A DNA stretch of 61,572 nt, filler included. It is 12 parts of 12 records of this genome, joined end to end, with 100 filler letters (N's around TTAATTAATTAA, not from the genome) between each part and the next. Parts side by side here need not be neighbours in the genome. Positions count along the whole stretch, not along the records: positions 15,560 to 22,364 come from SRR7504441_4971; 11 more parts are not named here. One strand, given 5' to 3'. The notes beneath the pieces are model-generated. The model saw nothing but the letters and a program-made list of their open reading frames with translations, was not told the origin of the DNA and did not search any database. Below, piece by piece: positions 4,577 to 61,116 of the stretch; the first letter of the stretch is position 1; each line of letters starts with the position of its first letter. Position numbers and translations under genes: made by a program.

Positions 4577-5011
4577 TGAGTCATCAAGCCGAGCCCAAGC
4601 ATCGAAGGTACTAGATACGGCTCTGATGACTCGGAAGGCGAGAAGGCGCGCTTAGTGACGCGAGCTGGTTAGTAGAGCTCGGTTCTAATAGAGCGCTTTA
4701 TTCTAAAGAAATCGGTAGATGGAGTGCCGCCGTCATTCTGGGTTGGGTGATAGCTTAATTAACCTACGAGTTGAGCTGTGTTAGAGCTCCATAGCCAATG
4801 CAACTTGGTTTTAAGTTGTGTTAGGGCTGTCCAGAGCCATAGCCATAGTCTACTTAATTGATCTTTAGTCTACTATGAAGTTCACACGGACGCCCGAAGC
4901 GTGCGCCACGCTCGAAGCCACGCTCCAAGCTCAACTCCTCGCAACATGGCGGTGCGCGCGGCCTGCCCGGTCTGGACGGCCGATGAGTAGCGGGCCGGCC
5001 GTGCGCTGAGC

Positions 5012-5111
5012 NNNNNNNNNNNNNNNNNNNNNNNNNNNNNNNNNNNNNNNNNNNNTTAATTAATTAANNNNNNNNNNNNNNNNNNNNNNNNNNNNNNNNN
5101 NNNNNNNNNNN
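5012..5111. other. Artificial contig linker (N-run/TTAATTAATTAA/N-run); first of 11
   Basis: Identical 100-nt all-frame-stop spacers also at 9084-9183, 15460-15559, 22365-22464, 27831-27930, 31314-31413, 35815-35914, 39990-40089, 45445-45544, 49734-49833 and 56809-56908. Confidence 0.98.
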
Positions 5112-8940: not shown

Positions 8941-9390
8941 GCAGTTAGCTATAGCCCGTTCTTCACAAAAACGTAGATCTAGAGATCTACGACCAGAAAT
9001 ACGCGATCGCGATCGCGAGGGACCTGCATCCAGGCATGACCAGTGGTGTTGAGAGGGAAATGATTTTGTATGACGTTCCAGGCNNNNNNNNNNNNNNNNN
9101 NNNNNNNNNNNNNNNNNNNNNNNNNNNTTAATTAATTAANNNNNNNNNNNNNNNNNNNNNNNNNNNNNNNNNNNNNNNNNNNNCCGAGGAGTGCATGTTT
9201 GTTCGTCTGCGTCTTCGAGTTTCTCTCTTCGGGCGACTCACTCGGGCGCAAAAAAGTTCTCTCTCGCCTGCATGTAATTGTTCTCAGCCACAAAATATAA
9301 ATAGAAATAGAAATAGTATTGCGCCGTGAGATTACATGTATGAAAAATAATCGTGTCAATCATAAGTATCTCAAACCACATGACATCTCA

Positions 9391-11907
9391 TCACAGGGTG
9401 AACACATGATCTGGTGGCCCGAGCTTACAATTACCCGTCCATACATTCAGAACGCCCTGCATGAGATCAAAGATACCAGTCACCTCGCTGAAACAATCAT
9501 CCGGACCGGTATGATTCCTATAGACTGGCCAGTTGCCCTCGGTGTCGCCGAGGAACCGTCGCATCCCGCCTAAATCCTGAATCGGTTGCATCTGCCGCCA
9601 GCGGTTGGCTCGGCTCTGTGTGCTGTTATCTGGAAATTGCTTGGCCTCCTTTAACTCTTTGAACTCATTCCCATGAAAGTAGCTCTCACCCGGCCCAATC
9701 GCCCTCTGTGCCACCCGTCGCCCGCCGCCGGTGTCCACCTCAAGCTGCACCAGCCGGCTATTCGTACCACGCCATCCCAGTTGGTAGCTCATCGCAGTTG
9801 ATACGTTCGGCTGGGCGGCCCGGGCAATCGCTTGGTCAAGTGAGCTGGCAGTGAGTAGATGCCTCGCGGCGAACGCAGTCCCGATCCCACCGAGCTGATA
9901 CCGGCGTGGAAACAGGCTGTTGACGGTATAAACTAGCCCGTGGCTATTCCAACTGATATCCATCCCCGGAAGGTAGCCCGGATAGACCCAGCTGCCCCAG
10001 CTCAGGCTATCGCTCCGCCGTGTGGCAGTGATGAAGTAGGCGAGGGTGCGCCAATCCTGGGTCCAGTCGTCGGTATGCCCGAGCAGCATCCCACTTGGCT
10101 GGTTTAGCATCACGGACGAGCATTTAGCCACCCTCAGCTTGGGCTCGGCCAGCTGCACCAGCTCTTCCCTGAAGTTGTTCACAACTAACCGCCCAACCGG
10201 CACACCGGACCCGTCCGACATCCCCTCAAGCTCCTCCCAGTAGAGCGGAAACGCCGCCTTTGAGTCCCGGGCCAGCGAGGCCAGCACAGCCGCTCCTTGG
10301 GTGCCGTTGGTGTACCGGAGCAGCAGCTGGAGCTCCGGGTCCGGCGCCTCGAGCATCACCCGCCGGATACTCGGCCCGAACTCCGCCCCAATCGCCCGGC
10401 CGAGCTCCCGGTGCCCTGCCAGGTCGTCCGAGTACGCGATCCGCAGCTGCCGCACCGCTGGCGAGCGCTCAGCTTCGGCGGTCACACATGAAGCATTAAG
10501 CGCGGGTGAGACGGCCATAGCCGCGCCGTGCAGGCTGCCAGGGGTGCAGCGCCAGCTGAGGTCAGAGAGCGGAGCGCGGCCGGCAGCGAGCACCGAGACG
10601 TTCTGCAGCCGCAGGCCGTGCACCCCGCCAGGCCCAAGCGCAGAGGGCTCGGATCCGGCTTGGAGCCACCCAGCTGAGCGGTGCTTGGGGTCGCAGCCGT
10701 AGTCGACGCAGCCCTGGCAGCAAGTCAGATTCCGGGCGACGATGTTTTCAAACACCACGCCGGTCACCCTGGCCACGTCCTCAGGCGGGGGCGTTCGGTG
10801 GCCCTTGACGGTACCGAGATTGACATCAACCCCAACCGCCATCCCAGCGCTCAGAATTTCGATGTTGCGCCAGGTTACGTTGGTCACCTCCCCGCCCCGT
10901 GGCTCTGGCGTTGATAGTTTGAGCGCGATCCCGGCATATCCGACTGTGTTGTGTTCAAACAGGATGTTGTGAATGCCGCCCGACATCTCGGTGCCCACCT
11001 TGAGTGCGCCGCACCCGTCGCCCAACCCATGAAAGACGTGCGGGCACGACGCCGATCGGATCAGATTGTACCGGGCCCGGACATCGGTGCATGGCCGGCT
11101 GTGCGCTCGCCCGATCTGGTTGCGGCCACTCTTGATGCAAATCGCATCATCGCCGGAGATGATATCATTGTGTTCGACCAGCGCGCGGGTGACGGAGACG
11201 AGATCGATACCGTCTGCGTTCGGGCCATAGCAGTCTTCGGTCTGGTTGGTGCACCCCCCGCGGCCGCCACTTGGGTTCCGCACAGTCACGTGGTGAATGT
11301 GCACGTCTGAACTCTCAAGCACCACTAGATTCCAGAACCCGCTCGCATTCGTCCCAAATCTCGAGAGCTCCACCCGCCGACAGCCTTCGATCACCGCCAG
11401 CCGCGGCCGGCCGTATCGAAGCTGGCCTTGGCTGTTGGCTCTGTACCAGAAGAAGCCGTCGCCGTCGATTATGCCGGGGCCAGTGATCACCAGGTCTGAG
11501 ACGTTCACCGCGTGGATAAACGGGGCATACTGCAGCGCATCCCCATCGATGCCGTTGGCCCAGGGCGCCACTGTCGGCCAGTCTAGGGCGCTCAGTGCCT
11601 TGATCCGGACGCCAGCCTCGAGCACCAGCGTCAGGTTGGAGAGAGTAATCCGCAGCGGCCTGCTTAGATAGAGGCTCTCACCGCTCCCGGGCCGCTTGGG
11701 CACGATCAGGGTGCCACCGGTCCGGGCCAGCTGGGCGAACGCCTTTATGAATGCTGGCAGGTTGTCCGCCGCGTCCGGCGAGCCGCCAAAGTCGGTCAGC
11801 CGCACGGTCGGCCCGCCCGCACCGCCGGAGGTGACCGGGACTGTCTGCAACGGCCACGGCCCCGCGGCTGCTGCGGCCACTGCCGCGAGCATCAGGACCG
11901 TCTTCAT
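9391..11907 (-). CDS. Secreted GH28 polygalacturonase-like domain fused to a peptidase C45 (AAT/Ntn hydrolase) domain
   Basis: Signal peptide. GH28 motifs NADGID, GDDAICIKSG, LKVGTEMSGG. The C-terminal half has FPLYWEELEGMSDGSG, Ntn nucleophile AK-CSSV, GHTDD and WNSHGL. Intronless 838-aa ORF. Confidence 0.85.
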   Translation of the reverse strand: MKTVLMLAAVAAAAAGPWPLQTVPVTSGGAGGPTVRLTDFGGSPDAADNLPAFIKAFAQLARTGGTLIVPKRPGSGESLYLSRPLRITLSNLTLVLEAGVRIKALSALDWPTVAPWANGIDGDALQYAPFIHAVNVSDLVITGPGIIDGDGFFWYRANSQGQLRYGRPRLAVIEGCRRVELSRFGTNASGFWNLVVLESSDVHIHHVTVRNPSGGRGGCTNQTEDCYGPNADGIDLVSVTRALVEHNDIISGDDAICIKSGRNQIGRAHSRPCTDVRARYNLIRSASCPHVFHGLGDGCGALKVGTEMSGGIHNILFEHNTVGYAGIALKLSTPEPRGGEVTNVTWRNIEILSAGMAVGVDVNLGTVKGHRTPPPEDVARVTGVVFENIVARNLTCCQGCVDYGCDPKHRSAGWLQAGSEPSALGPGGVHGLRLQNVSVLAAGRAPLSDLSWRCTPGSLHGAAMAVSPALNASCVTAEAERSPAVRQLRIAYSDDLAGHRELGRAIGAEFGPSIRRVMLEAPDPELQLLLRYTNGTQGAAVLASLARDSKAAFPLYWEELEGMSDGSGVPVGRLVVNNFREELVQLAEPKLRVAKCSSVMLNQPSGMLLGHTDDWTQDWRTLAYFITATRRSDSLSWGSWVYPGYLPGMDISWNSHGLVYTVNSLFPRRYQLGGIGTAFAARHLLTASSLDQAIARAAQPNVSTAMSYQLGWRGTNSRLVQLEVDTGGGRRVAQRAIGPGESYFHGNEFKELKEAKQFPDNSTQSRANRWRQMQPIQDLGGMRRFLGDTEGNWPVYRNHTGPDDCFSEVTGIFDLMQGVLNVWTGNCKLGPPDHVFTL

Positions 11908-12003
11908 CCCCGTACGTCCAGCCGGCCCTCGGAGCGATAACCGTTACAGACTGCCGTTATTGCTGAATCGCCAAGGCGCCTCACCTCAGCATGTCCATAC
12001 CAA

Positions 12004-15207: not shown

Positions 15208-15559
15208 CAAGCTTCGGGTATAGCGTTGCCGAAATCCGCTTCAGGAGAACTGTAGCTATGTAAACTAAATATTGCTTAAACAACACATGCCAACTGAGCA
15301 ATAAACTAAGCATTAGCTGACCGCTACTTTCCTACAATAATATTACAATCATCACACTGATGATCAATAATTGTACGAGTACTCGTAGAGTACTCGTACA
15401 TATACACCTACAGTTGATCATGATTGTATTCGTACGTACGATACCATGTAAAATCAATTNNNNNNNNNNNNNNNNNNNNNNNNNNNNNNNNNNNNNNNNN
15501 NNNTTAATTAATTAANNNNNNNNNNNNNNNNNNNNNNNNNNNNNNNNNNNNNNNNNNNN

Positions 15560-18500
15560 ATAAGGAAAGAATTGGTTAAGAGCAGGCCCCGAGATCGAGC
15601 AGATCGTGGCATTGCTCTTGAAGCTCCATGGCGAGCATGGCTCTGCGATCTATAGCGGGGATAAGCTGGCATGGCTGGATCCCGAGTACGTGCCAATAGT
15701 GGAGCTACCTGCAGTGGGCGAGCCGGTAAACACCGCCTGTGAATAAGGAAATGACTGTTAACAGGAGCTGCGTGACTTTGAGCCGTCGAGCCGGTCGGCA
15801 GAGGATCAGGTTAACGCCGGGTTCCTAATCGAGCAATGACCCGTTGACACAGCGCGAGGCGGCCGGGCGGCTCGAGCTGCTGCAACGGGTGTGAGGCCTG
15901 AGCGATCTCGGCTGAGAGCTCGGTGCAGGCTGCAGACCGAGGGTTGGTGCAATTGCAGCCACAGGAGCCAGGTCGGCCGGCGGTGCTGAGCATGGCGGAG
16001 CTAATCGCCAACTTGCCGGTGCCTATGCTATAATAGTGTAGGTATACTGTAGGGTAGTAGTATCTGTTTGGCGGAGCTAATCGGCTGAGCTGGTCGCGGC
16101 AGGAGATCGGAGGAGTGATGGGCGTGTTTGAGTCTGGCGACAAGTACGAGCGGTAACCGCTTCTAACTGCTTTCAACGGCTTCCAACCCGGGAGTTAGGG
16201 CCGAGCGGATATTAAAGTTGCTCAAGATGTTGCAGCTCAAGGGGATGGGCTCGGTCGAGGTGCCGGTTCAGGCCGATGCGGCAGTTAGGGTGGGCTACAG
16301 CTGGCAGAATGGCCTGATTTGTGGGACCGATGCCTGGCCGCAGCCGAGGCCGAAGACGGCGGCGCCGAGACGGTGCCTGGCCGAGCATGATCAGTTGGAA
16401 GTGAGTTGTGAGACAGGTGCCAATGGAGGTAGACGAGCGGGGAGTGCCGTTTACGCACTTAAACCTGACCAGTGTGCCCGACGGTACAGCTGAGCGCGAG
16501 ATCGAGCCTATGGAGGTTAGAGACCGGTGGCGGGGTGGTGTGCGAGCTGGGGGTTAGGTGCGATATTTCGTGGTGGACGTGAGCAAGATCCGTCTGGGGG
16601 GCGATCAGTCCAACGAGCTGGTTGTGAGCATGGAGCTCAACCCAAGCACACCAGACGATACGAGCCCGTGGGTCGCCTGGAAGCTCTCAGGCAAGCCAAC
16701 AGAGCTTGACAACCACGGGCTGAGCTCACCCGACAAGCCTAGCGTGATGGCTGCCAACGGTTACGACAAGCGCAAGTTTGAGCTCCGAAGAGCCGACCCG
16801 CAGCCGGGCCCGTGGGTGGTGGCGGTGTCGGCCGCCAAGATGGCGCGATTCAAGGCGGGCACTTGTGTGCAGCGACATGCTGATCAAGCCGGCAGGTTTG
16901 GGTAAATCACGTGAAGGAGGCCTATCTGCAGGCACACGCGCCGCCGCCGCCGGAAGCACCGCCGTCCAATCTGCTGGCAAGCGACAAGCGTAATGCAGCG
17001 TACGAACTGTTCGCTGCGGTGGACGGGGACTGCAACGGATTCTTAGGGCTCGAGGAATTTGAGAGGATTGCGTGCTGGCTGTGCGGGGCGAGCGAGGCCG
17101 AGGCCAGGGAGAGCTTTGTGGCGCTCTCGTATGATGGCGTCGAGCTCACTGTGACGCAGTTCTACCGGTAACGGTTATTGCTATTATTACCACTGTGACG
17201 CAGTTCTACCAGCTGCACCTGGGCGCATTCCCCTTATTTTATTCAGGCCTGGCCCAGGGGTTTCTGATCGCGTGGTGCAGCTGGTGCTCACAGCGCTTTG
17301 CCGAGTTGGACAGGAAGAGCTTCGAGACCAAGGTGCCTGGCTTCAGTAATCTGTGGCTGAGAGCGCCCGGTGCAGGTGCATGTGCTCACAGAGCGGCTCA
17401 AGCTGCTAGACCAAGTACCCCCCGACCGCCAACCGACCGGCGCCTCAGCGGAGCTGCCGTTCCACGCCAGCCCGGACACTGCAGCGCTGTCGAGCGCACT
17501 GTCGAGCGCTCTCAAGCTAGAGACTACGTGGATACAAGTCTCGGAGCCCAGACCGCGAGGGGCGGGAGTGACGGTAGCTGTCAGCATCCGGGATCCGGAA
17601 CAGCGCACTTCGGATGAGCTGACCAAGCTGTACGTGGATGCGCTCGCCGAGCTGCAGGCGCAGTACAAGGACCCCAGCTCGAGATTCCGGTTAGCCAACC
17701 AGCTGTTGAGCGACCAAGTTAACTCCGCAGCGCCTGTCGAGTCCTGTCTCGAGTCGCAGCCCCGGGCGTTGCCGCAGCCTGGGCGGGCCAATCTGAAGCT
17801 CGAAGGGGTGCGCGCCCTGTTCAACGGAGCGCGCTGGTGCGAGGAGGCCAGCTCGGCCAGCCTGGGCAAGATCAGCTTGGTCGGCGAACCGGTGCCGTCT
17901 CAGCTGAGCAAGGGAGTGCTGTTTGTGGAGGTGGAGGTGGCTGATCAGTGTGAACAAGTGCTGGCGAGACTGGAGCAGCTGGGCGCGGTGGGAGCGCCCG
18001 TTAATAGGGGCCTACGAAGCGATGGCGTAGCCGCCAACCTGCCACCGCTTCGTATTAGTATAACTAGTGTAGTACACTTGCGCCCCCTGTACTATATACT
18101 ACTTATACTACTGTACTGACTACACTACTGCGGTGGCAGGTTGGCGGCTACACGCTGCGCAAAATCGAAAGGGGGGAGTCCCAGCCAGCGGAAGGGTTGG
18201 CTGAGCCTGCAGCGGAGGAGTCTGTGGTCGACTTTGAGGCTGTGCCGGTGGCCAAGCCGCCGGCAGTCAAGGAACCCCAGTGGATTGACGCCACCCTGAT
18301 GGTATATGACTGATAGTAGTACAACTAGTAAAGTGAGTAGTATGGTATGCAGCCCGAGTGGGTTGACGCCGCCCTGATGGTATATGACTGCAGGTACTGC
18401 TCCCAGCCGATCGAATCGACCAGCAGAAGCTCAGCGCGGAGCTCAGCTCCGTGCTCCAGCTCGACCCGGGGCAGCTCTCGCTGATTTCCGTTGAAGGCAA

Positions 18501-21500
18501 AGCCAAGCCGATGCGACTGCCCGATGGTCGTGAGGAGCCGGTCACAGCAGTCACAGTCCGAGTCGCCAGCGGGCCGATCGGGCCATCCAGTGCAATGGAG
18601 GCCTTGCGGGCCGCCATGGAGGACGATCGCTCGGCGCTGTACACTGCTGAGCTGACACAGGCGCCCGGCAGCCGTTTCAGGTGGTGACTGTGTCCGTAGG
18701 CCAGTCGGATCCACCGATTTTTCGATCCAATCCTCAAGCCGAGCTACACCGCCTCAGCAGCCCAGGCGCTCCTAGGGCTGAGCCAGCGCCGGTGCCACCA
18801 ACCGCTTCGGTGACGGCGTAGCTGTGCGGGGCTGAGGGGGAAGTGTTCAGGTGGGCTGACGTGACGATGCGGCTCGTAATGGACTTCGAGGCAGTCAAGG
18901 CAGCGCAGCCTCGGCGGCAGTTTGAGGCTGCGGTGCACCTTCCTAATTAGGACTATAGCTTAACAGGGTATCGCGGCAGGTGCAGCAGGAGCTCGAGCAG
19001 CTGCTCGGTCCAGGGAGCATTTTCAGGGTAATAGCCATCCGGGCCGGCTCAGTGGTGGTTGTGGTGCGCGTCCTCAGGGGCAGCGTCCACGACGCACCGC
19101 CGGTGCTGGCCACCGTAGAAAAACTGCAGCAGCTGGTAACGGAAAAGCAATCTGGGCTGCACAAAACCGCGGTGCTGAGCAAGCTCGACCCGGCCAGCTC
19201 GTTGCTAGCGGTCGAGAACGGGCCGCTCGAGCCGCAACATCAGTGGGCAGAGGTCAAGTTCGCGATCCGCGGTGTGCAGCGGCAGGAGCTCAAGCCGAGC
19301 TCCGGGAGCCGTCTTGGGCTGGAAAGCACGCTGGTGGACGAGCTGTGCGAGCTATGTGGACTCGAACCTTCAAGGCTGAAAGTGGCCCAGCTGGCGGAGG
19401 GCGCGGGGCAGGCCGTGGAGGTCACAGTGCGGATTCAGATGCCGGAAAATCCGGAACGGGTCTCGGCGGTGGAGGCCGGTCGGGCGCTGCGCGAGCTGCT
19501 CGAGGCCGGGCTGGAGGGGCACGTGGGCCGGCTGCAGGGGCTGGACAGCAGCACGGAGGTGACGGTGCGTCCGGGACCGTTGCAGAGCGAGGAGGCGATG
19601 GAGCTGGCCGCGCTCTGGCGGTCGGCGGTGATGCGCGTGACGTTTCAAGTGGCGATAGCAGTCCCGGAGAGCTTCGACCAGGACGGGTTTACAGGATCGC
19701 TGGCGGTTTACTTGTCCGACGCAGTGGCCCAGCTCCCTCAAGGCACCTGCCAAGTCCAGTTTGTGCCGGCTGGTTCGATCAGGATCGAAGAGCTGGCGCG
19801 GCGCGGCGAGTTTTTCGACCTTACGGTGGATGGCTTTCTAATTTGGGAATAACCATAGCTTAGCACCTTCCTGATTAGCCAATAGTCGTGGCTTAACGGT
19901 TTACGATGCAGATTGGGATCTGCGGCCGGGACCTGACCCAGTTGGAGAAGCAGTTGAGGCGGCTGGCGGGGCTCGGATCGAGCAAGATGGTCGGCGGCGC
20001 CCGAGTGTGCAAAGTACTCCAGGTGCGCACAGCCGGGGCGGTCCAGGCGGCTGATCAGTGGCAGGTGCGCCGGACCGACGTGCCGGCGAGCACGAGTCAA
20101 GTGTTTGAGCTGCTTGACTTCGACAACGACGGGTTGGCGAGCTTCGAGGCTCTCGAGCAGGAATTTGCCGGCATAATGGAGCGGAGCGGGAAGGCGGCCG
20201 ATCTCGGGCCGCGCAAGGTGTTAAGCTATGGCTATTACCTAATTAGGAAGGTGTTAAGCTGTGGTTGGTTCGTATTTGGGAAGGCGGTCGAGCTCGGGCA
20301 GGTGGTCGCATTCATGCGAGTTTTCAAACACATCAACGCCTGGCGCGGCTCCAGTCTGGATCAGTTCACGCTGTGGCGGTGTGCCTTCCTAATTAGGAAC
20401 TATGCATAGCTTACCATCTTTCCAACTAGGAAATGGGCATAGCTTAGCAGGATGCTGCCACAGGTTTAACGGCATCTGGGAGAGGCTTGTGCTGCTCTGC
20501 CAGGACGCACCGGTCCCAAGCGACGCCGTTATCTCGCTGTTGCCCATGTTTGACACGGAGAAGAGTGTGGACGCGGACGGGGACGGTAACATCGACATGG
20601 ATGAGTGGCAGGAGGCTGGTGGCTCAAAGGAGCAGTTTGGAGTTGCTGACCTGGACGGCGACGGGGTGCTCGATCCCTATGAGATGAAGATGCGCGCGCT
20701 GGCCACTGGTGGGTTGGCCGGGCCTCAGGGATCTGGGCCGGCTCCGAGTGTGTTGATATCGCGCAGCCTGGCCGATCTGGCGCAATACAGCGAGCCCAGC
20801 ACCAGGCTTGGAGTGGCGGAGCAGATCAGGTTGTTTGGGGTGCCGGTGTGGGCTGGCTGTGACGCGATGTCGGTGAGGCTGATTCAAGAGGCCGAGGAGG
20901 CCGGGCTGGAGCTGTATTTGAGGAGGGGGCAGCTGCCGAATCACGACGAGTGGGACTACAGGCAATACTACTATTATCATTATTACTTGTATTATTATCA
21001 TTATTGAGTGAGACTGCAGGCAGCTGGAGGCCGAGCTGCAGCCCGGGGGCGGGTGCATGTACCAGTGCACCGTCAGGCCGCCGGAGCCGGGCACATGGTA
21101 TGTCGGGGTTGCTGGGATCCACATCGTGAGCTGGCGGCTGGAGCTGGAGCTGAGAGGCTGCAAACAAGCTTACCAGGCGCCTCAGCTGCTCTCGAGGTAA
21201 CTCACCGACTCTATAGCTGAACACCTTCCTAATTAGGGAACTGATATAGCTTAACGCCATCCTGACAAGATGCTGCGACAGATGGTCGTCTTACACCGCT
21301 GCTGAGCCTAGTCCTGCGTCCGGGCGGCTCAGTGCCGACAGAAGGGAACATGCGAGCGCAGTGTTTGCATTCTTGGACTACAACAACGCCGGCACTTTTG
21401 AGCCTGAGCTGCTGCATGTGCTGTGTATGCGCGCTGGCTACGATCAGCTAGGCGAGCGAACACAGGGTGGGCACTTGTGTTGTGAGGCAGGGCTGACTTG

Positions 21501-22282
21501 TGGGCAGGTGCCCCCGCGGATGCGAGCACTGGCTGCTCGCCTGTGGTGGTCAGGCTCACTGTACAGTTTAAGGCAAGTTGGCTGCTTGCACTGTAGTATA
21601 GCGTATACTATTCAGTCGGCCGCTTGCACGTGACATCTCTTGTCAGTTAACGCGCGACGACATCAAACCGGATTCGCCAGTGCGCGAGCAGTTTGTGGCA
21701 GACACAGTGCAGGGGCTGGTAGCCGCGCTGGGGTTGGAATCGGCGATGGTGACCATGGCTAGCCTGGATGCCACCGCGACCGGTACCAGCGCGGTGATGG
21801 AGATCGAGCAAAGCTACAGCCCAGCGGCTGTCAGCGTAATCGGCTGCGCGGACCGGCTGCGAGAGCAGCTGGAGGACAACGGCAGCTCACTGCACTCGGC
21901 GCGACTCTCTGTCTCCTGGGGGAAAGCTACCCAGGAGGTGCAGCCGGAGGTGTGGACGCTGAGCCCACTAAGGGCCGCAGCCAAGGAGGCTGGCGTGGAC
22001 GAGGACGGCGAGGCAAGCTGCTGGCCGAGCAGGCGGCTGACAGGCTGACGGTGGCAGGTAACGCTGCTCGTCTTCTATCGTTGGTGCCAACGGCTTTGGG
22101 GGGAGCTGTCTGTTGTGCAGTTTGGGGAGACAATGACGCAACTGGCTCGGAGCGCAAAGGTGATTGTGTGGATGGTTTAATTAATAGTATCACAGTCGCC
22201 CGATTGATGCTTGGGGCTGCAGGAGATTGGGGCTGCGATGCAACGCAGCCCAGCCGGAATCTTGAAGAAAGAACGATTATGA
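15560..22282 (+). CDS. Very large, intron-rich protein with several EF-hands and repeated SEA-like alpha/beta domains (5' partial)
   Basis: ORF pieces can be joined in frame by short introns (e.g. 16855-16895, 18000-18139, 18302-18393, 19826-19911, 20379-20463, 22013-22057), ending ILKKERL* at 22282. EF loops DGDCNGFLGLEE, DFDNDGLASFE, DADGDGNIDMDE, DLDGDGVLDPYE; SEA-like IRAGSVVV. Not all junctions are resolved. Confidence 0.65.
18933..21281. repeat. ~33-nt intronic repeat family (consensus ~CTTCCTAATTAGGNAATANCCATAGCTTAACAC) in five introns; introner-like
   Basis: Copies in introns starting at 18933 (1 unit), 19826 (2), 20218 (2, reverse orientation), 20379 (2) and 21197 (1.5). Confidence 0.85.
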
Positions 22283-22537
22283 TGTTCAAAACGTAGCAAC
22301 TTGCTTCAAATGAGCAATCATTGTTTGAGTTCTATACCGGCTTATTTGAGTGAAATAAAAGAGTNNNNNNNNNNNNNNNNNNNNNNNNNNNNNNNNNNNN
22401 NNNNNNNNTTAATTAATTAANNNNNNNNNNNNNNNNNNNNNNNNNNNNNNNNNNNNNNNNNNNNTCACACACACATGGGGTTTAGTTCTTCGGTATTTGG
22501 CATGGTTACTCGTACTAGATCGTCACAGTTGGAGCTA

Positions 22538-45565: not shown

Positions 45566-46205
45566 ATGGAAGAGTCTGGGTCGGATGAAGCCCACTGCGA
45601 GGAGCGTCGCCCGCGGGTGGGGATTCTGATCGACTACAGCTTCGAGGACATGGAGGCACCGAGCCTGCCGGCCGGCCCGAGCAGCGCGGCAGGTGATGTA
45701 TCCCAAGCTCCGGCTGCAGGAGGAGGGGATCCAGATCGTGGTGGCCGGTGCGCACCCGGCCGGCACTAAGTACACCGGCAAGTTCGGGTACCCCGTGAGC
45801 TCCGACCTGCACGTGGACGACTTGGACGAGGAGGAGCTGGACGGGCTGATCATCCCCGGCGGCTTCGCGCCAGACTACATGCGTCGGGTGCCCAGGATGC
45901 TGGAGCTCGTAGCCCGAATGGTCGAGGCGCGCAAGCCCGTGGCGGCGATATGCCACGGGCCCTGGATGCTGTGCTCGGCTCGGGGGGGAGACGGGCGGCC
46001 GGTGGTGTCGGGGGTGCGCTGCACGAGCTTTGTGGCCATCAGGGACGACGTGGAGAACGCGGGGGGGATCTGGGTTGACGAGCCGGTGGTTGTGGACGGC
46101 CCGGTGATCACATCGCGCAAGCCGGACGATCTGCCGGCGTTCTGTCAACAGATCTTATCGGCTGCAATTAGCCACTTTCTGCAAGCTGCAGGCTCCAACG
46201 ACTAA
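45566..46205 (+). CDS. DJ-1/PfpI family protease/deglycase
   Basis: RVGILIDYSFEDME joins VMYP via GC-AG intron 45656-45692; also LIIPGGFAPD, AAICHGPW and TSRKPDDLPAF. Confidence 0.92.
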
Positions 46206-46275
46206 TCCATAACCTTGAATCTTAATTAAACTTAGTTAGGGTTCAGTCATGCCGCTATGTGTCTTTTCACCGGAG

Positions 46276-49966: not shown

Positions 49967-52900
49967 TTACGATTCGATGCACATGCCGCCACGGCACAAA
50001 GGCGTCTTCTCTGTTGGAGGTGGGGAACAGAAGCAACGCTTGGACTTGTCGCAGCAAATCTCGCACACACGATAACCATCTGCATCCTTTTCGTGGCATG
50101 CATGGTCTAACACCCCCTCTGGGATTTTGCCCAACGCTGCCTGGTGGGTCGATACGACAGCAGAGATGTTTGCCAGGACGTCTTTGACCAGTTCGGGAGG
50201 TCCCTTGACTGGGAACATCTCCGATGGATCGTGCTCTATGTTGAAGAGCAGCCACGGCACCTGTTTGCCATACGGCGAGTGAGCGCTACCACTTTGATTG
50301 AGGAACCCTCTCTCAGGGCCTGCGTGTGGCTCATTGGGCTGCTCAGTCCAAAGGTGCGCCTTGTACGGGCCAACTCGCACCGCCTGCAAGGTGGCGCCCG
50401 CATAAAAGAACAGGGCTCTATCTGAATGTGGCTTGGGCGCGCCGGTCAGCATGGGCAACATGGACATTGAATCATAGATGCGGTCCCTCGCCAGTGAGGC
50501 GCCTGCAGCATGCGCCACCGTAGCGAAAACATCAGTTGTAGAGACCACTTCATGTCGCACCTGAGGTTGGATCACACCTGGCCACACAACCAGTCCAGGC
50601 TCTCGCAGCCCGCCCTCCCAGGTCTGAGTCTTCGAGCCGAGGAACTGCACAAAATAGAGGTGGGTGAGTTCCAATCAGAAGTCAAGGCTTACCATGTGAT
50701 TTGAGCCTGTGTGGGCCTCCAGCTGCCGGCCAGGCTGCAGGTGCTGGTGCGCGTCTGGAGCACCGTTGTCTGAAGACATCAAGACAAGTGTATTGCCTGC
50801 AACACCGGCTGCCTCTAGAGCGCTAACGACGGCGCCGATTGAAGTGTTCACTTCGGTGACGCTGTCCCCAAAGATGCCCCGCTTGGATTTGCCTGCCTGG
50901 GCCTTGCCCGCGTACTGTGGCGTGTGTACATGGCCAAATGCCATATACAGGAACCAGGGATCCGCTGACGAGGAGGCACGCTTCACAAAGTCCACAGCAT
51001 TGGTGGTGTAGCGTGCATTGATTGTGGCAAGATCGACCGGCTGCTCAATCACAGTGGTGTTCTCCAGCAGAGGCAGTGGAGTGCACCCATAGTAGTCGTC
51101 GGACCAGCTCTCATCGGTGCGATTGTTGAATGCGAAGCCCATATCCACAGAGTAGGGGATTCCATAGTAGGTATCGAAGCCATGTGCAGTTGGCAGAGCA
51201 TCAGCGACAGAGCCCAAGTGCCATTTCCCGATCTGCACGAAATAGCGGTATGTAAGTTCCAAAATAGCGGTGGGTAAGTTACCATGTGAGTCTGATAGCC
51301 CTGAGTTTTGAGCATCTCAGCCATGGTGATCTCGCTATCCGGCAGGCCCATGTCGCTCGAGCAGGAGAACACTCCTTGTCCACCTGAGCTCGTCGAGGCC
51401 AGGCCATAGCGGATCGGAAGTCGACCGGTTAGCAGAGCAGCACGGGATGGCGTGCAGATGGCGTGGGCCGAGTACCACTGCGTGAAACGGGCGCCTCGTG
51501 CAGCGAGCTTGTTGACGTTTGGGGTCTCTGTTGATGGCGAGCCATAAACTTCCCAGTCGCCGTAACCAGAGCTGCAACACTGAATCAATCACTGCTACCA
51601 GCAGTGCGGCAACTCACTCATCTACAAAAAACATGATGACATTTGGCTTGGCAGAAGTGGCCTCGGTCGATGGGATGTAGTTCGAGCTTGAGAGCTCGTC
51701 TGGCAAAGTTGTGATATTCGGAAGAGTATCTTGGCAAACAAACAGGTCCATGTTATGAGGCTCGCAGAGGCATGTTGGGCTCCCGTCCGAGTCAAGCTTG
51801 TCTGGGCAGCCGCAAAAGGCCGCCCCGCCGCTCTGCTGGATCGTGCTGTCCCATCCTAGAGCAATCTGGTTGGTGACTGGCTCCAGGCTGGCAATATGCG
51901 CGTTGATGGCACTCGTAGCAATCTTGAGTTGCTCATCGAATTCTGCTTTGTTCCTGACTGGGTCGAGTGGGAACCGCTCTGAAGGGTCTTCGTCGATGCG
52001 GTAGATGAGTGGAGTTGGCTGATACACGCCTGGTGGCATGTAGCGTACCGTGCACGACTCCTCCGTCGCAACGAAATGGGTCTTGTAAGCCCCACACCGC
52101 ACAGCCCACAGCCCTGGGTCTACCTGGTTCTTCAGTGGCGACTCCATCTCTGTGCCGCAGAACTTGGCATCAGAGCAGCCCTTCCAATAAAAGATACAGC
52201 TGTGCGCCGATTTGCTTCCGGGCTGCAAAAGCAGCGGCATCATGTCTCTGCCATCAAATACCCGATCCGTCTGTAGAGCGACACCTGCGAGTTTCAAGAT
52301 TGTTGGGAAAATGTCATACGTGGCAACGGGCTCGCTCTCGATCCGTGGCTGGATCACACCCGGCCAGTGCACTATGCCGGGCTCTCGCACCCCGCCCTCC
52401 CACACGCTGCCCTTGCCATCTCGGAATGGACCAGCCGAGCCGCCTTCGAGATGCTCGATTGTCCAGGGTCCGCTGCAAGCCCATTGTCATGCGGGCACAC
52501 TGAGGTGCGCATACTTATCTGACGAGAAGAAGGTGACAGTTGTGGCCGCAGCGCCAACCGAGGCCACACTCTGGATCACCTGCCCAGCCAGCCAATCCAG
52601 CTCCTGCACAGCATCTCCAAACAACCCACGACGCGACGAGCCACAGAACTCTGGTGATACGAAATCCGGGACATGCACGTGCTGGAAGGCCAGATAGAGC
52701 AGCCATGGCCGCTTCTCGGCAGTGCTGTTCCGGATGAAACTATCGGCAAACGCTGCGTATCGTTGGGAGAGCGTATCGAGGTTTGCTGGCTGCTCGACTA
52801 CAGCGTCTCCGGCAAGCAGAGGCAGTGGCGGGAAGGCGCCTTGCTTGCTCCACGCACTCTTGCCCATATCCACTGAATATGGGATGCCGTAGTATTGTTC

Positions 52901-56808: not shown

Positions 56809-57182
56809 NNNNNNNNNNNNNNNNNNNNNNNNNNNNNNNNNNNNNNNNNNNNTTAATTAATTAANNNNNNNNNNNNNNNNNNNNNNNNNNNNNNNNNNNN
56901 NNNNNNNNTTGCGCGCAGCCCAACCATACCGTCGCAGCCAGAGCTGTCATAACTAGACTCGGCCGATGGGCTTAGGAAGAATAGTAAAGTGATACTAAGT
57001 CTCGAGATACAAATCTGAAACGTGCTTTCGTGCGAACTCCACCTAAGCTTAAGCTTAATTAAGGTTAGGCGGACATCGGTCAGGTTGAGCGCATCAATTT
57101 CACCGACTAACTATCACAGACAACAACAAGTTATCAATAATTCTGAGAAGATCAAGCACGCGTGTGCGTGCTTGTTTCACTC

Positions 57183-58544: not shown

Positions 58545-58612
58545 CCCCACACTGCAGTGATGGGCCTGTCACTGGCACTCACGTCCATCTTCTGGAGGGT
58601 GGGCGTTGACAC

Positions 58613-61116
58613 ATGGAGGCTCCGGGGTCTGAGCCGGAGGCGCCGGTGTCTCAGTTCGCCCTGCTGAACGAGCTGGCCCAAGCGGAGGGCTGGGTGCTGG
58701 ACGTCAAATCCTCCCAGAACCCCAGATTCAGCGCCAAGGCCGAGTTCGGCGGCTGCGACGGCTCGGGCTGCGGGCACTCGATCAAAGAGGCCCGGCACGC
58801 GGCGGCCGAGGAGCTGCTCCACCGACTGGGGGTCCCGCGCCAACCCAAGAAGCCGGCGGCCGCCCAGCTGCAGGAGCTCACCCAGGCTCGGGCCTCGAGC
58901 TACAGGCGGCAGAAAGCGGCGTTCGGGTCCTCCCGCTGGCTGTATCAGCTCAAGTGGACCGATACCGAGTCGCCGGCGTTCGACGCGGTGGTGACCATGG
59001 CCAATAACCTGGTCGCGCACGAGCAGGGCGATAGCGTGGGGGTGGCCAAGGACAAGGCGGCGGCTTCGGTGCTGGGCAAGATGGGCATACAGGGCCTGGC
59101 GCCATGGGCCGACCAAGTGGCAGCCCTGGTGCTCGACAAGTGGGTCCAGCTGAACAGAGCGGTCGGGGTGCAGGCGCAGGAGGTGTTTGGCAACTCGGTG
59201 GTGGCCGGGTTCGTCCAGCTCGGCCCGGGCAGCTCTGAGAGCAAGGTGGTCTCGATCGGGGCCGGAACATCGCACTCGCCCGATCTGCCGACAGAGCGGC
59301 CGGCGCGCTGCCTGTTTGACTGCCACGCCGAAGTGCTCGCCCGGCGGGGGCTGCAGCGGTACTTGCACTGGCAGGTAGAGCAGGCCCATGAGCCCGAGTG
59401 CGAGAGCATCTTCAGCCGGAGGTCGGATGGGCTGGTGCTGCAGGAAGGCATAGAGTTCCACTTCTATGTGAGCAAGGTGCCGTGCGGCGACGCAGCTATC
59501 AACCCCTCGACTGAGGGCTGCACGCCTTGTAATATGCAGCCCTCGCTTGGCGGCCGTGGGCCATCTCTCCCAAGCTCAATCCATGCCCACTGGCCTCGGT
59601 TCCAGCGGTCCACACACGGCAGACTCCGGTGCAAGATGGACACAGGCGAAGCTCTTTCAGTCCTCCCTCCGAATTACGACGATGTGGACGCTACCGAGAG
59701 ATACCGCAAGATGAGCTGCAGCGACCAGATTCTGCGATGGAACATCTTGGGCCTGCAGGGTGCTGCGCTCTCTTGGCTCTTGGCCGAGCCGATCTACATG
59801 AAGAGCCTGGTGCTTGACTCGGAGCAGGTGCTCCACTCCGACCTGTGCCGGGCCGTCTGCTGCCGCGTGAGCTGCTGGCCGGCTCAGCAAGCTCTCGAGC
59901 TGCCGCGGCCGTACAGAGTGAACCACCCAGAGCTGCTCCGATCGTGCTACAGCCATCCGCACTATCGGCCGGAGTCGGCAGGCCACAGCAAACAGAGCGG
60001 GTCGGGCGCATATGCAGCAGTCTGGAGTGCGGATGCGTCGGAGCTGGAGCTGATAGCTGACGCCACCAAGGGGACTTGTCTGAGGGTGGCCGACCTTGAG
60101 GAGAGCCAGAGTGTCAAGTGAGCTAAGCCAGCCGGCTATTTAGCTGCTGAGCGTGCCGGGGCAGGTCGAGGTTGTACCAAGCGGTCGGGCACCTGCGCTC
60201 GATGCTCTCGATTCAGACCAGGTACCTGCGACCGGATGAGCCTCATGAGCCAGAGTCGCAAGACCCCCAGAGCGAACTGTACGAAACCTGTGTCACTCTG
60301 AGAGGCGTGTCAGTTTCATCCAAAGGACCCAACAGGAAAGTATCTGAGAAGAGCGCGTGCGAAAAGATGCTTCAAAGCGTGCAGTCGTTGGCTGTGAGCA
60401 GCGTGTGTCAACATTCGCTCTTTCATTCTTTCTGTAAGCTGATTGAATCCGGTGGACTTGCTACACCAACTAGTGAATTCAATTTCAGTGTTGCAGCAGC
60501 AACTGGTGACAGTCGCTACGCATCAGCAGCTCAAAGTATGCACTCTCATTTCGAAAATAGCTGGGGACAGAAATGGTTGACACTAGATGACCTGAAGAAC
60601 ACTCTGTCAAAAGCAAGTACATCAAACCCTTCGAAGGGGATATCTCCAACTGTGTCCAGTGTGATCAACTCCCTTGGTGGTGCATCACTCGACAGGACAG
60701 AGGCAAATGAGCCACTGGCAGGAGATGCGCATGATGCTCATCCATCCATGAAAGCTCTGCAAGCCGATGCGCCCGTCTTTGTGCCCGTGCGAGCTGCTGC
60801 GGCGGATGCATCTACCCCTGTGCGATCGCAAGCTGCTGTGGTGGATGCATCTACGGGCTTATACATGCGAACAGCTTCGATGGATGCAGCTATCGCCATG
60901 CAGTCAAACTTTCCCATGTACAACCCTCTCCAGCAGGCAGGGCCCCTCCTTACGCAATCAAGTGGTGCATACGACTACTACAACACCAGCAATATGCAGG
61001 CGAACAATAATTCATACATTCAACAGAACGCGAATGTTTCTTACCCACAGCCCATGCCACAACAATACAACGAGTACGACTACTACAATACCGGTACTGG
61101 CGAATGGCTGCATTAA
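58613..61116 (+). CDS. ADAR: ADAR-like dsRNA adenosine deaminase (2 N-terminal dsRBDs, deaminase with an inserted third dsRBD, PAM2 motif, Q/N/Y-rich tail), ~818 aa
   Basis: dsRBD helix-2 signatures GHSIKEARHAAAEELL and GDSVGVAKDKAAASVL. Catalytic motifs DCHAEVLARRG (59318), PCGDA (59480) and MSCSDQILRWNILGLQGA (59711). Phase-2 GT-AG intron 60118-60164 joins ORF 60172..61116. Confidence 0.88.

Follow-up and report, generated by a model that had tools for sequence, protein, structure and literature searches.

The origin of new spliceosomal introns is an old open question, and few cases have been caught in the act, such as the neointrons of Daphnia and the bursts of introners. It is possible for an intron to be created by tandem duplication of an exon segment that contains AGGT. 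In Daphnia pulex, the available text of one study describes neointrons that are AT rich and carry, at the far end of the intron, a repeat of 4 to 12 base pairs (bp) of the end of the adjacent exon (PMC4202315). Internal repeats were read there as later staggered breaks that enlarged young introns, and the source of the inserted DNA was mostly unknown. Small tandem duplications arise from fill-in at staggered breaks, according to the accessible part of another report (PMC8355091). In the (stw)introns of the Hypoxylaceae, the excerpted account describes terminal inverted repeats of 45 to 55 nucleotides (nt) that form one long hairpin joining donor and acceptor (PMC8469720). Here, we describe a single gene, on one contig of a 61,572-base window of DNA from a GC-rich eukaryote, in which a subset of the predicted introns carries a copy of the intron's own flank across short, unrelated filler. 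With moderate confidence, we read these repeats as young DNA-level events of error-prone break repair and not as a splicing device.

The window, that is, the whole stretch of DNA analyzed, consists of 12 contigs of 3.4 to 7 kb each, joined end to end via spacers (N44 + TTAATTAATTAA + N44, at 5012 to 5111, 9084 to 9183, 15460 to 15559, and eight more places), so that genes on either side of a spacer are not genomic neighbors. The five repeat pairs that an earlier note on this DNA had listed were all recovered, with the identities given below. These pairs and the cases added here are confined to one contig, positions 15560 to 22364, which holds the host gene. The features are as follows.

16118 to 22048, plus strand: host gene, with a predicted coding sequence (CDS) of 1570 codons and 16 GT/GC-AG introns of 28 to 170 nt
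15993 to 16007 and 16069 to 16083, plus strand: direct repeat TGGCGGAGCTAATCG, 15/15 identical, around a 61-nt TAG-rich filler (16008 to 16068)
17147 to 17166 and 17191 to 17210, plus strand: direct repeat, 20/20 identical, around a 24-nt TAT-rich filler
18027 to 18048 and 18130 to 18151, plus strand: perfect inverted repeat of 22 nt, around an 81-nt TAGTA/TACTA filler that is partly palindromic (added here)
18275 to 18312 and 18353 to 18390, plus strand: direct repeat, 35/38 identical, around a 40-nt TAGTA filler
18681 to 18850, plus strand: borderline direct repeat, a 170-nt GC-rich intron with TTCAG/GTGG at both junctions (added here)
20188 to 20209 and 20278 to 20299, plus strand: direct repeat, 20/22 identical, around two reversed 33-nt units (20215 to 20280)
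20948 to 20964 and 21006 to 21022, plus strand: direct repeat, 15/17 identical, around a 41-nt TATTA filler of 15% GC
21580 to 21591 and 21618 to 21629, plus strand: direct repeat GGCYGCTTGCAC, 11/12 identical, around a 26-nt TAGTA filler (added here)

Unrelated filler of 24 to 81 nt separates the copies at every site, and each repeat sequence, the borderline one aside, is present in the window only as its own local pair. The earlier note had described most pairs as flanking TAG/TAC/TAT-rich filler, which is true of four of the five, the fifth (20188/20278) flanking the reversed 33-nt units. Its claim that the pattern is concentrated in one gene also holds: the repeats are local, 88 to 100% identical, and located on predicted short introns of that gene. 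The broader description of introns that contain a copy of their flanking exon stands for the predicted introns at the other noted pairs and is not supported for the 15993/16069 pair. That pair precedes ATG 16118, the likely start codon, and would belong to a leader or upstream region where neither an intron nor a flanking exon is evident. After ATG 15992, taking out one 76-nt period at this pair meets a stop, and an alternative 42-nt intron, 16019 to 16060, would keep both copies exonic.

Once the 16 introns are removed, the predicted exons join into one open frame that starts at ATG 16118 and ends with the stop codon at 22046 to 22048. The predicted donors are GT in 13 cases and GC in 3, and all 16 acceptors are AG; each of the introns thus resembles the U2 type in that it runs from GT or GC to AG and joins the frames on removal, with more than one solution at several sites. 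The frames of the chain agree with an independently trained codon-usage score, built from 13 long open reading frames (ORFs) on other contigs with a GC content at third codon positions (GC3) of 0.74. The predicted CDS itself has a GC3 of 0.77 and a GC content of 64%. Clear reading frames are picked by this score in the contig from 15560 to 22364 too, and the contig therefore most likely comes from the same organism as the other 11.

We scanned for direct repeats that were ungapped, had copies 20 to 150 nt apart, and scored at least 13. Six were found in the target contig, and none appeared when every one of the 12 contigs was dinucleotide-shuffled five times; checked in this way against shuffled controls within the window, the frequency is above chance. 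The other 11 contigs gave 0, 2, 1, 0, 10, 0, 0, 0, 0, 1, and 2, the 10 being one Ala/Glu-rich coding repeat, and four other high scorers that were inspected are also coding repeats. AT-rich islands with a flanking repeat scoring at least 12 make up 6 of 14 in the target contig versus 1 of 73 elsewhere (Fisher p = 3.8e-5), and that sole flanked island elsewhere is a coding repeat. The island at 21580 scored 11.0, under the cutoff. In a second test, the 5' window of each junction set was compared with its own 3' window and the score set against 552 mismatched pairs from 24 junction sets, comprising the 15993 to 16083 leader element, 15 of the 16 modeled introns (21508 to 21646 was left out), and eight controls. 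Own-junction scores for direct repeats were 15.0 (15993 pair), 20.0 (17147 pair), 30.5 (18275 pair), 17.0 (20188 pair), and 13.5 (20948 pair), and the inverted 18027 pair scored 22.0. These six top scores exceed all or nearly all of the mismatched pairs (0.000 for 15993 and 0.004 for 20948). A significant own-flank repeat is therefore present in 6 of 16 host-gene junction sets, five direct and one inverted, and the six are made up of all five sets whose filler is AT rich and stop rich, together with one of the five that hold 33-nt units. The 170-nt intron at 18681 to 18850 scored 9.0, which was equaled by 0.038 of mismatched pairs. Repeats of 5 to 12 nt seen by eye at 16153, 16401, 16516, 16855, 17333, 18933, 19826, 20379, and 21197 are insignificant (0.14 to 0.58 of mismatched pairs). 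None of the eight control introns has a repeat involving the exon; seven show nothing, and 51233 to 51282 scores through an internal tandem repeat. The repeat pattern marks a subset of the host-gene introns.

The source assembly is very fragmented, as the short contigs here reflect, and the pairs might be unmerged contig overlaps or wrongly closed gaps of a short-read assembly, all the more as exact-period removal restores continuous ORFs at three sites. We hold this to be highly improbable. The unrelated AT-rich filler must come from reads that join it to both copies, four of the pairs have mismatches, no Ns lie nearby, and the pattern is limited to one gene. Moreover, the hairpin at 18027 and the pair at 18275, where 92 nt instead of the period must be removed to keep the frame, are unlike unmerged overlaps.

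If an insert and a target duplication arose in a continuous exon, removing the insert together with one copy must restore the frame. Indeed, removal of 44 nt at 17147, 90 nt at 20188, 58 nt at 20948, or the entire 125-nt palindrome 18027 to 18151 restores the frame with good codon scores, and these four sites fit the origin of a new intron within an exon that had been uninterrupted. At 17147, the only supported canonical intron is a predicted one from GT17151 to AG17203, 53 nt in length, that starts and ends with GTGACGCAG and costs three codons; exact excision of 44 nt is a frame-compatible alternative. Codon scores are 25.7 for the 53-nt model and 27.0 for the exact excision, and a rival 79-nt GT-AG intron (17168 to 17246), with a GTAAC donor and a pyrimidine-rich acceptor, was rejected on a codon score of 10.4. 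At 20188, the predicted GC-AG intron, 20194 to 20283, is the exact 90-nt period with AAG/GC at both junctions, or else a GT-AG intron would start from 20218. At 20948, the earlier observation that a duplicated CAG/GCA supplies both the GC donor and the AG acceptor was borne out: CAG/GC is present at both junctions of the predicted 58-nt GC-AG intron 20962 to 21019, which equals the period and is frame compatible. The alternative there is GT-AG, 20950 to 21019, and the codon scores of the two models are 12.9 and 12.8. The GT-AG alternatives at 20188 and 20948 would lose or gain a few codons, a choice that the codon scores do not settle.

Two sites behave differently. At 18275, the sole frame-compatible GT-AG intron nearby is a predicted one of 92 nt, 18302 to 18393, that holds a copy of the last 27 nt of the upstream exon plus its own first 11 nt; segment 18266 to 18301, upstream of it, scores as coding (+4.1). 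The period here breaks the frame, so the event is at best an enlargement of an existing intron and not a birth. The simplest history is that a 51-nt AT-rich intron gained a 41-nt copy of its 5' junction at its 3' end. Enlargement also fits 21580, where the pair lies inside a predicted 139-nt intron, 21508 to 21646, the least certain part of the intron model. The earlier note had proposed intron birth or expansion, and both would have their place, with birth frames restored at 17147, 20188, and 20948 and 18275 left to enlargement.

The inverted repeat at 18027 has a form of its own. The predicted intron is GT-AG, 18027 to 18139, with a length of 113 nt, and the right arm of the repeat extends 12 nt into the next exon; the frame is kept by this intron as well as by exact removal of the 125-nt palindrome. 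Folded as RNA, 18010 to 18165 forms a single long hairpin at −74.8 kcal/mol (z = −8.3), a stability that 0 of 200 shuffles reached. Such extreme stability, together with the frame compatibility of exact removal at 17147, 20188, and 20948 and of the palindrome, would suit a non-canonical excision, in which repeats and hairpin guide exact removal at the RNA or DNA level, as proposed for Amoebophrya and euglenids. In the available text on Amoebophrya, inverted repeats of 8 to 20 nt join the intron ends and direct repeats of 3 to 5 nt overlap the borders (PMC7789003). We consider this mode of removal decidedly improbable for the host gene. Exact-period excision, tried as a general rule, fails on frame at 18275 (78 nt) and 21580 (38 nt), canonical GT/GC-AG sites are at hand for every one of the 16 introns, and no such repeat is present at 10 of the 16 junction sets. 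A suspected second inverted repeat, 20360 to 20480, is insignificant (z = −1.9; 7 of 200 shuffles as stable).

The fillers themselves bear on where the inserted DNA came from. The six AT-rich fillers contain TAGTA at 29.9 per kb, versus 0.55 per kb in the window, and are 15 to 43% GC versus 64% for the CDS, AT rich in the manner of Daphnia neointrons. Three of them (16008 to 16068, 18049 to 18129, and 18313 to 18352) share TAGTAGTAYAACTAGT-like stretches that are matched by 0 to 0.7% of shuffles, and the two TATTA-type fillers are weakly alike. As a separate observation, non-coding AT-rich islands with CTTAATTAA / TTAATTAA palindromic cores occur on three other contigs (4733 to 4890, 46194 to 46253, and 57033 to 57073) and may be another short repeat family. 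The second type of insert in the host gene is a family of 33-nt units.

18938 to 21256, plus strand: 33-nt unit family CCTTCCTAATTAGG..ATAGCTTAAC, eight clear units in five introns within 2.4 kb
18938 to 18970; 19833 to 19898 (two); 20215 to 20284 (two, reverse strand); 20384 to 20449 (two); 21224 to 21256: the 33-nt units

The units are in sense orientation in four introns and reversed in one, and a significant flanking repeat accompanies them at one of the five. A profile of the eight units recovered only those eight in the window at an E value of at most 1e-4; the best match outside the contig had an E value of 2.4, and the profile found nothing in the other 54.8 kb. A literature search with the unit core returned unrelated matches only. 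Other short repeats were seen within introns. Two introns of a sulfatase-like gene, 51233 to 51282 and 50645 to 50692 (minus strand), both carry AACTYACCCACCKCTATTTTG, and the former is made up of a 22-nt unit in two tandem copies. The target gene is therefore not alone in having small tandem duplications and short repeats specific to introns. In the host gene, the first coding intron, 16153 to 16198, has three tandem units of ∼10 nt, CTTCTAAC, CTTTCAAC, and CTTCCAAC, which may be repeated branch-point motifs. A link of the 33-nt units to the sulfatase-gene or first-intron repeats was considered, and the alignment is unconvincing.

A mobile-element origin is the main rival to break repair. The inserts would then be small mobile elements that make introns, akin to introners, and the flanking repeats would be target-site duplications. 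The 33-nt family, found in both orientations in five introns so close together, speaks for such an origin, as do motifs shared among TAGTA fillers beyond what shuffles produce. Published introners, as far as the available texts go, take their splice sites from the duplicated target, can land in both orientations, and at times add codons to the gene or remove them (bioRxiv 10.1101/2022.06.06.494994, 10.1101/2020.10.14.339549). However, the published families covered by those texts have fixed duplications of 3 to 8 nt, and here the lengths are 12, 15, 17, 20, 22, and 38. Long and variable duplications would imply target-primed or paired-nick insertion and not a classical transposase, with the clustering explained by local hopping. 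The direct-repeat sites lack terminal inverted repeats, inspection revealed no poly-A or other tail beside the duplicated copies, and neither filler type has a copy in the other 54.8 kb. A significant repeat at only one of the five introns with 33-nt units also argues against it, and the 18275 site fails the test of insertion into an exon. On balance, we think an origin from introner-like elements unlikely.

Error-prone break repair is the reading we prefer, and the events it calls for can be set out as follows. At about seven places of one fast-evolving gene, short AT-rich, stop-rich DNA would have been inserted, accompanied by copying of 12 to 38 bp of the neighboring sequence; six sites would have received a direct copy and one an inverted copy made by snap-back. 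The generator is most likely error-prone repair of staggered or resected double-strand breaks, in which long-overhang fill-in and microhomology-primed copying of the flank would combine with capture or copying of a short AT-rich sequence. Inserts in coding sequence would be tolerated since they would be removed as short spliceosomal introns, and the GT/GC and AG sites used would lie within or beside the duplicated copies. Splicing, the direction of change, the youth of the events, and the repair pathway are all things that we infer from sequence.

Several features argue for DNA-level break repair: the near-identity of the copies, their variable length, the inverted case, microhomology, and the non-coding pair. 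The variable length of 12 to 38 bp and the inverted case fit a variable stagger or snap-back better than a fixed-cut transposase. The position of the 15993 pair outside the coding sequence is expected of a DNA-level process that is blind to splicing. The 20188 repeat starts with GGGAAGG, the reverse complement of the first seven bases of the 33-nt unit, CCTTCCC, and this match at 20278 provides microhomology at the junction. We also counted for repair the small tandem duplications elsewhere, namely the 22-nt units of 51233 to 51282 and the pairs of 33-nt units. The earlier note had suggested staggered-break repair or template switching with filler synthesis. The inverted 18027/18130 repeat fits the template switching, or a snap-back, and the filler does not look like random synthesis.

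A number of observations weigh against break repair and are best considered together. No significant own-flank repeat was found in 10 of the 16 host-gene junction sets. Every splice site is predicted and rests on ORF logic and codon scores, and gain and age would be read from one allele at one locus. That seven events should fall within 6 kb, with none in the remaining 55 kb, would need a local cause. The fillers are not random, and their shared motifs point to a common source or element; there is no template for any AT-rich filler elsewhere in the window. At 18275, simple insertion fails on frame, the 78-nt period keeping frame 2 where the downstream exon is in frame 1. Finally, the 38-nt copies at that site (18275 to 18301 versus 18353 to 18379) differ three times, and all three differences are conservative changes at first codon positions (Q/E, I/V, and T/A). 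This pattern is odd, and would be unexpected for a freely drifting intronic copy, though n is only 3.

That last pattern could indicate that the repeats are maintained for a function, as decoy splice sites, spacers, or regulatory RNA structure, and are not recent scars. The 38-nt intronic copy brings a second 5' splice-site region, its three conservative differences from the exon copy are those just described, and the hairpin at 18027 sets both splice sites in one helix. Maintained function nevertheless seems to us improbable, as direct repeats cannot pair, the repeat sequences share nothing between sites, one pair falls outside the coding sequence, and intronic copies that nearly match the exonic ones are to be expected of young events.

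A more far-reaching interpretation is that the locus records a new intron-making process, in which a TAGTA/TATTA stop-rich cassette is deposited while 12 to 38 bp of the target are copied, directly or by snap-back. We offer this as a tentative and rather doubtful proposal. It might account for birth, enlargement, and hairpin forms standing side by side, which would reflect repeated action in one locus. The copies it makes, at 12 to 38 bp, would exceed every target duplication of introners and every Daphnia repeat several times over.

The host gene stands apart from its surroundings in other respects. It is far more intron dense than its neighbors, as other contigs hold uninterrupted ORFs of 835 to 850 codons, and the introns that can be read in four other genes are plain GT-AG introns of 40 to 56 nt. 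EF-hand families match at 20480 to 20950. The largest exon, 18980 to 19849, is 41% identical to the protein fragment P0001 (257 amino acids); it has only three matches among 1.84 billion representatives, and none crosses a junction. Exon 17376 to 18026 has no match among proteins of 119 to 380 amino acids, and the relatives of the gene are limited to two protein fragments, P0001 and P0003. In light of the few matches to one exon and none to a second, the host gene is, as judged from these searches, lineage-specific. Residues 213 to 257 of P0001, the one real relative, bear on intron start 19826, because their alignment stops 12 residues short of the predicted exon end and the sequences are then unrelated. 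This divergence may reflect read-through, in a relative, into an intron that occupies the same place, and we regard it as a lead only.

Elsewhere in the window, a RecQ-like ORF has its best named matches in Viridiplantae (land plants and streptophyte algae) at 42 to 51% identity, and a rhamnosidase-like ORF is 69% identical to a transcriptome protein. An Rfam scan of the whole window gave no matches, and an atlas search gave no score of at least 0.9. An ORF at 58610 to 60121 (plus strand) encodes a double-stranded RNA binding motif and an adenosine-deaminase (editase) domain according to Pfam, an ADAR-like architecture in an apparent microbial eukaryote. A second ORF, at 9394 to 11943 (minus strand), is intronless, has 850 codons, and combines glycoside hydrolase 28 with an acyl-CoA:6-aminopenicillanic-acid acyltransferase-like domain.

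Should splicing and recency be borne out, the host gene would hold several young events in one place. Its long duplications would keep the geometry of the breaks, namely stagger length, snap-back copying, and microhomology, and the locus would illustrate the rescue of the reading frame by cryptic GT/GC and AG sites that lie in the copies. If splicing or recency fails, it would be a curiosity of one contig.

Of the known systems, the Daphnia neointrons offer a close likeness, to the extent that their description is available, in that the inserts of the host gene are also AT rich with a copy of the flank at the far end. Of the 16 junction sets tested, 5 have an exon-end repeat of the Daphnia type as a direct repeat, which is in register at 20962/21019 and 20194/20283 and out of register at 17151/17203 and 18302/18393. 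Unlike the 4 to 12 bp reported for Daphnia, the repeats here are 12 to 38 bp with one inverted snap-back copy, the fillers share motifs, and seven events fall in one gene. The Daphnia gains were proven by presence/absence alleles (PMC4202315), whereas those of the host gene would be deduced from one sequence.

The introners of algae and dinoflagellates, in the accounts available, resemble the host-gene inserts in their short repeated intron sequences, in taking splice sites from the duplicated target, in inserting in either orientation, and in gaining or losing codons, and the family of 33-nt units, present in five introns, has the look of an introner family. Those accounts describe fixed duplications of 3 to 8 nt and many dispersed copies, whereas the host gene has long, variable duplications and no copy outside it in 54.8 kb; the repeats found here are neither fixed nor short. 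The inverted repeat at 18027 to 18151 is like the hairpin introners of Amoebophrya (PMC7789003), as far as these are described there, in pairing intron ends, and it is the only significant inverted repeat doing so among the 16 host-gene introns. In the portions available, the introns of Amoebophrya and euglenids mostly lack GT-AG and have direct repeats of 3 to 5 nt (PMC7789003, PMC3935182, PMC4770533); in the host gene, canonical sites are present everywhere and non-canonical variable borders are not seen. The Hypoxylaceae introns, as characterized in the excerpted account, form a sequence family and are seamless, without flanking duplications and with no exon in the arms (PMC8469720). In contrast, the host gene has a single hairpin, whose right arm, on the GT-AG model, takes in 12 nt of exon. 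As the AGGT model expects, a duplicated junction gives both splice sites at 20962/21019 (CAG/GC), 20194/20283 (AAG/GC), and 18681/18850 (TTCAG/GT). In its pure form, however, the intron consists of duplicated exon only, whereas here unrelated filler lies between the copies. Taken against these systems, the events in the host gene look like a known kind, the break-repair neointron, in an unusually long form.

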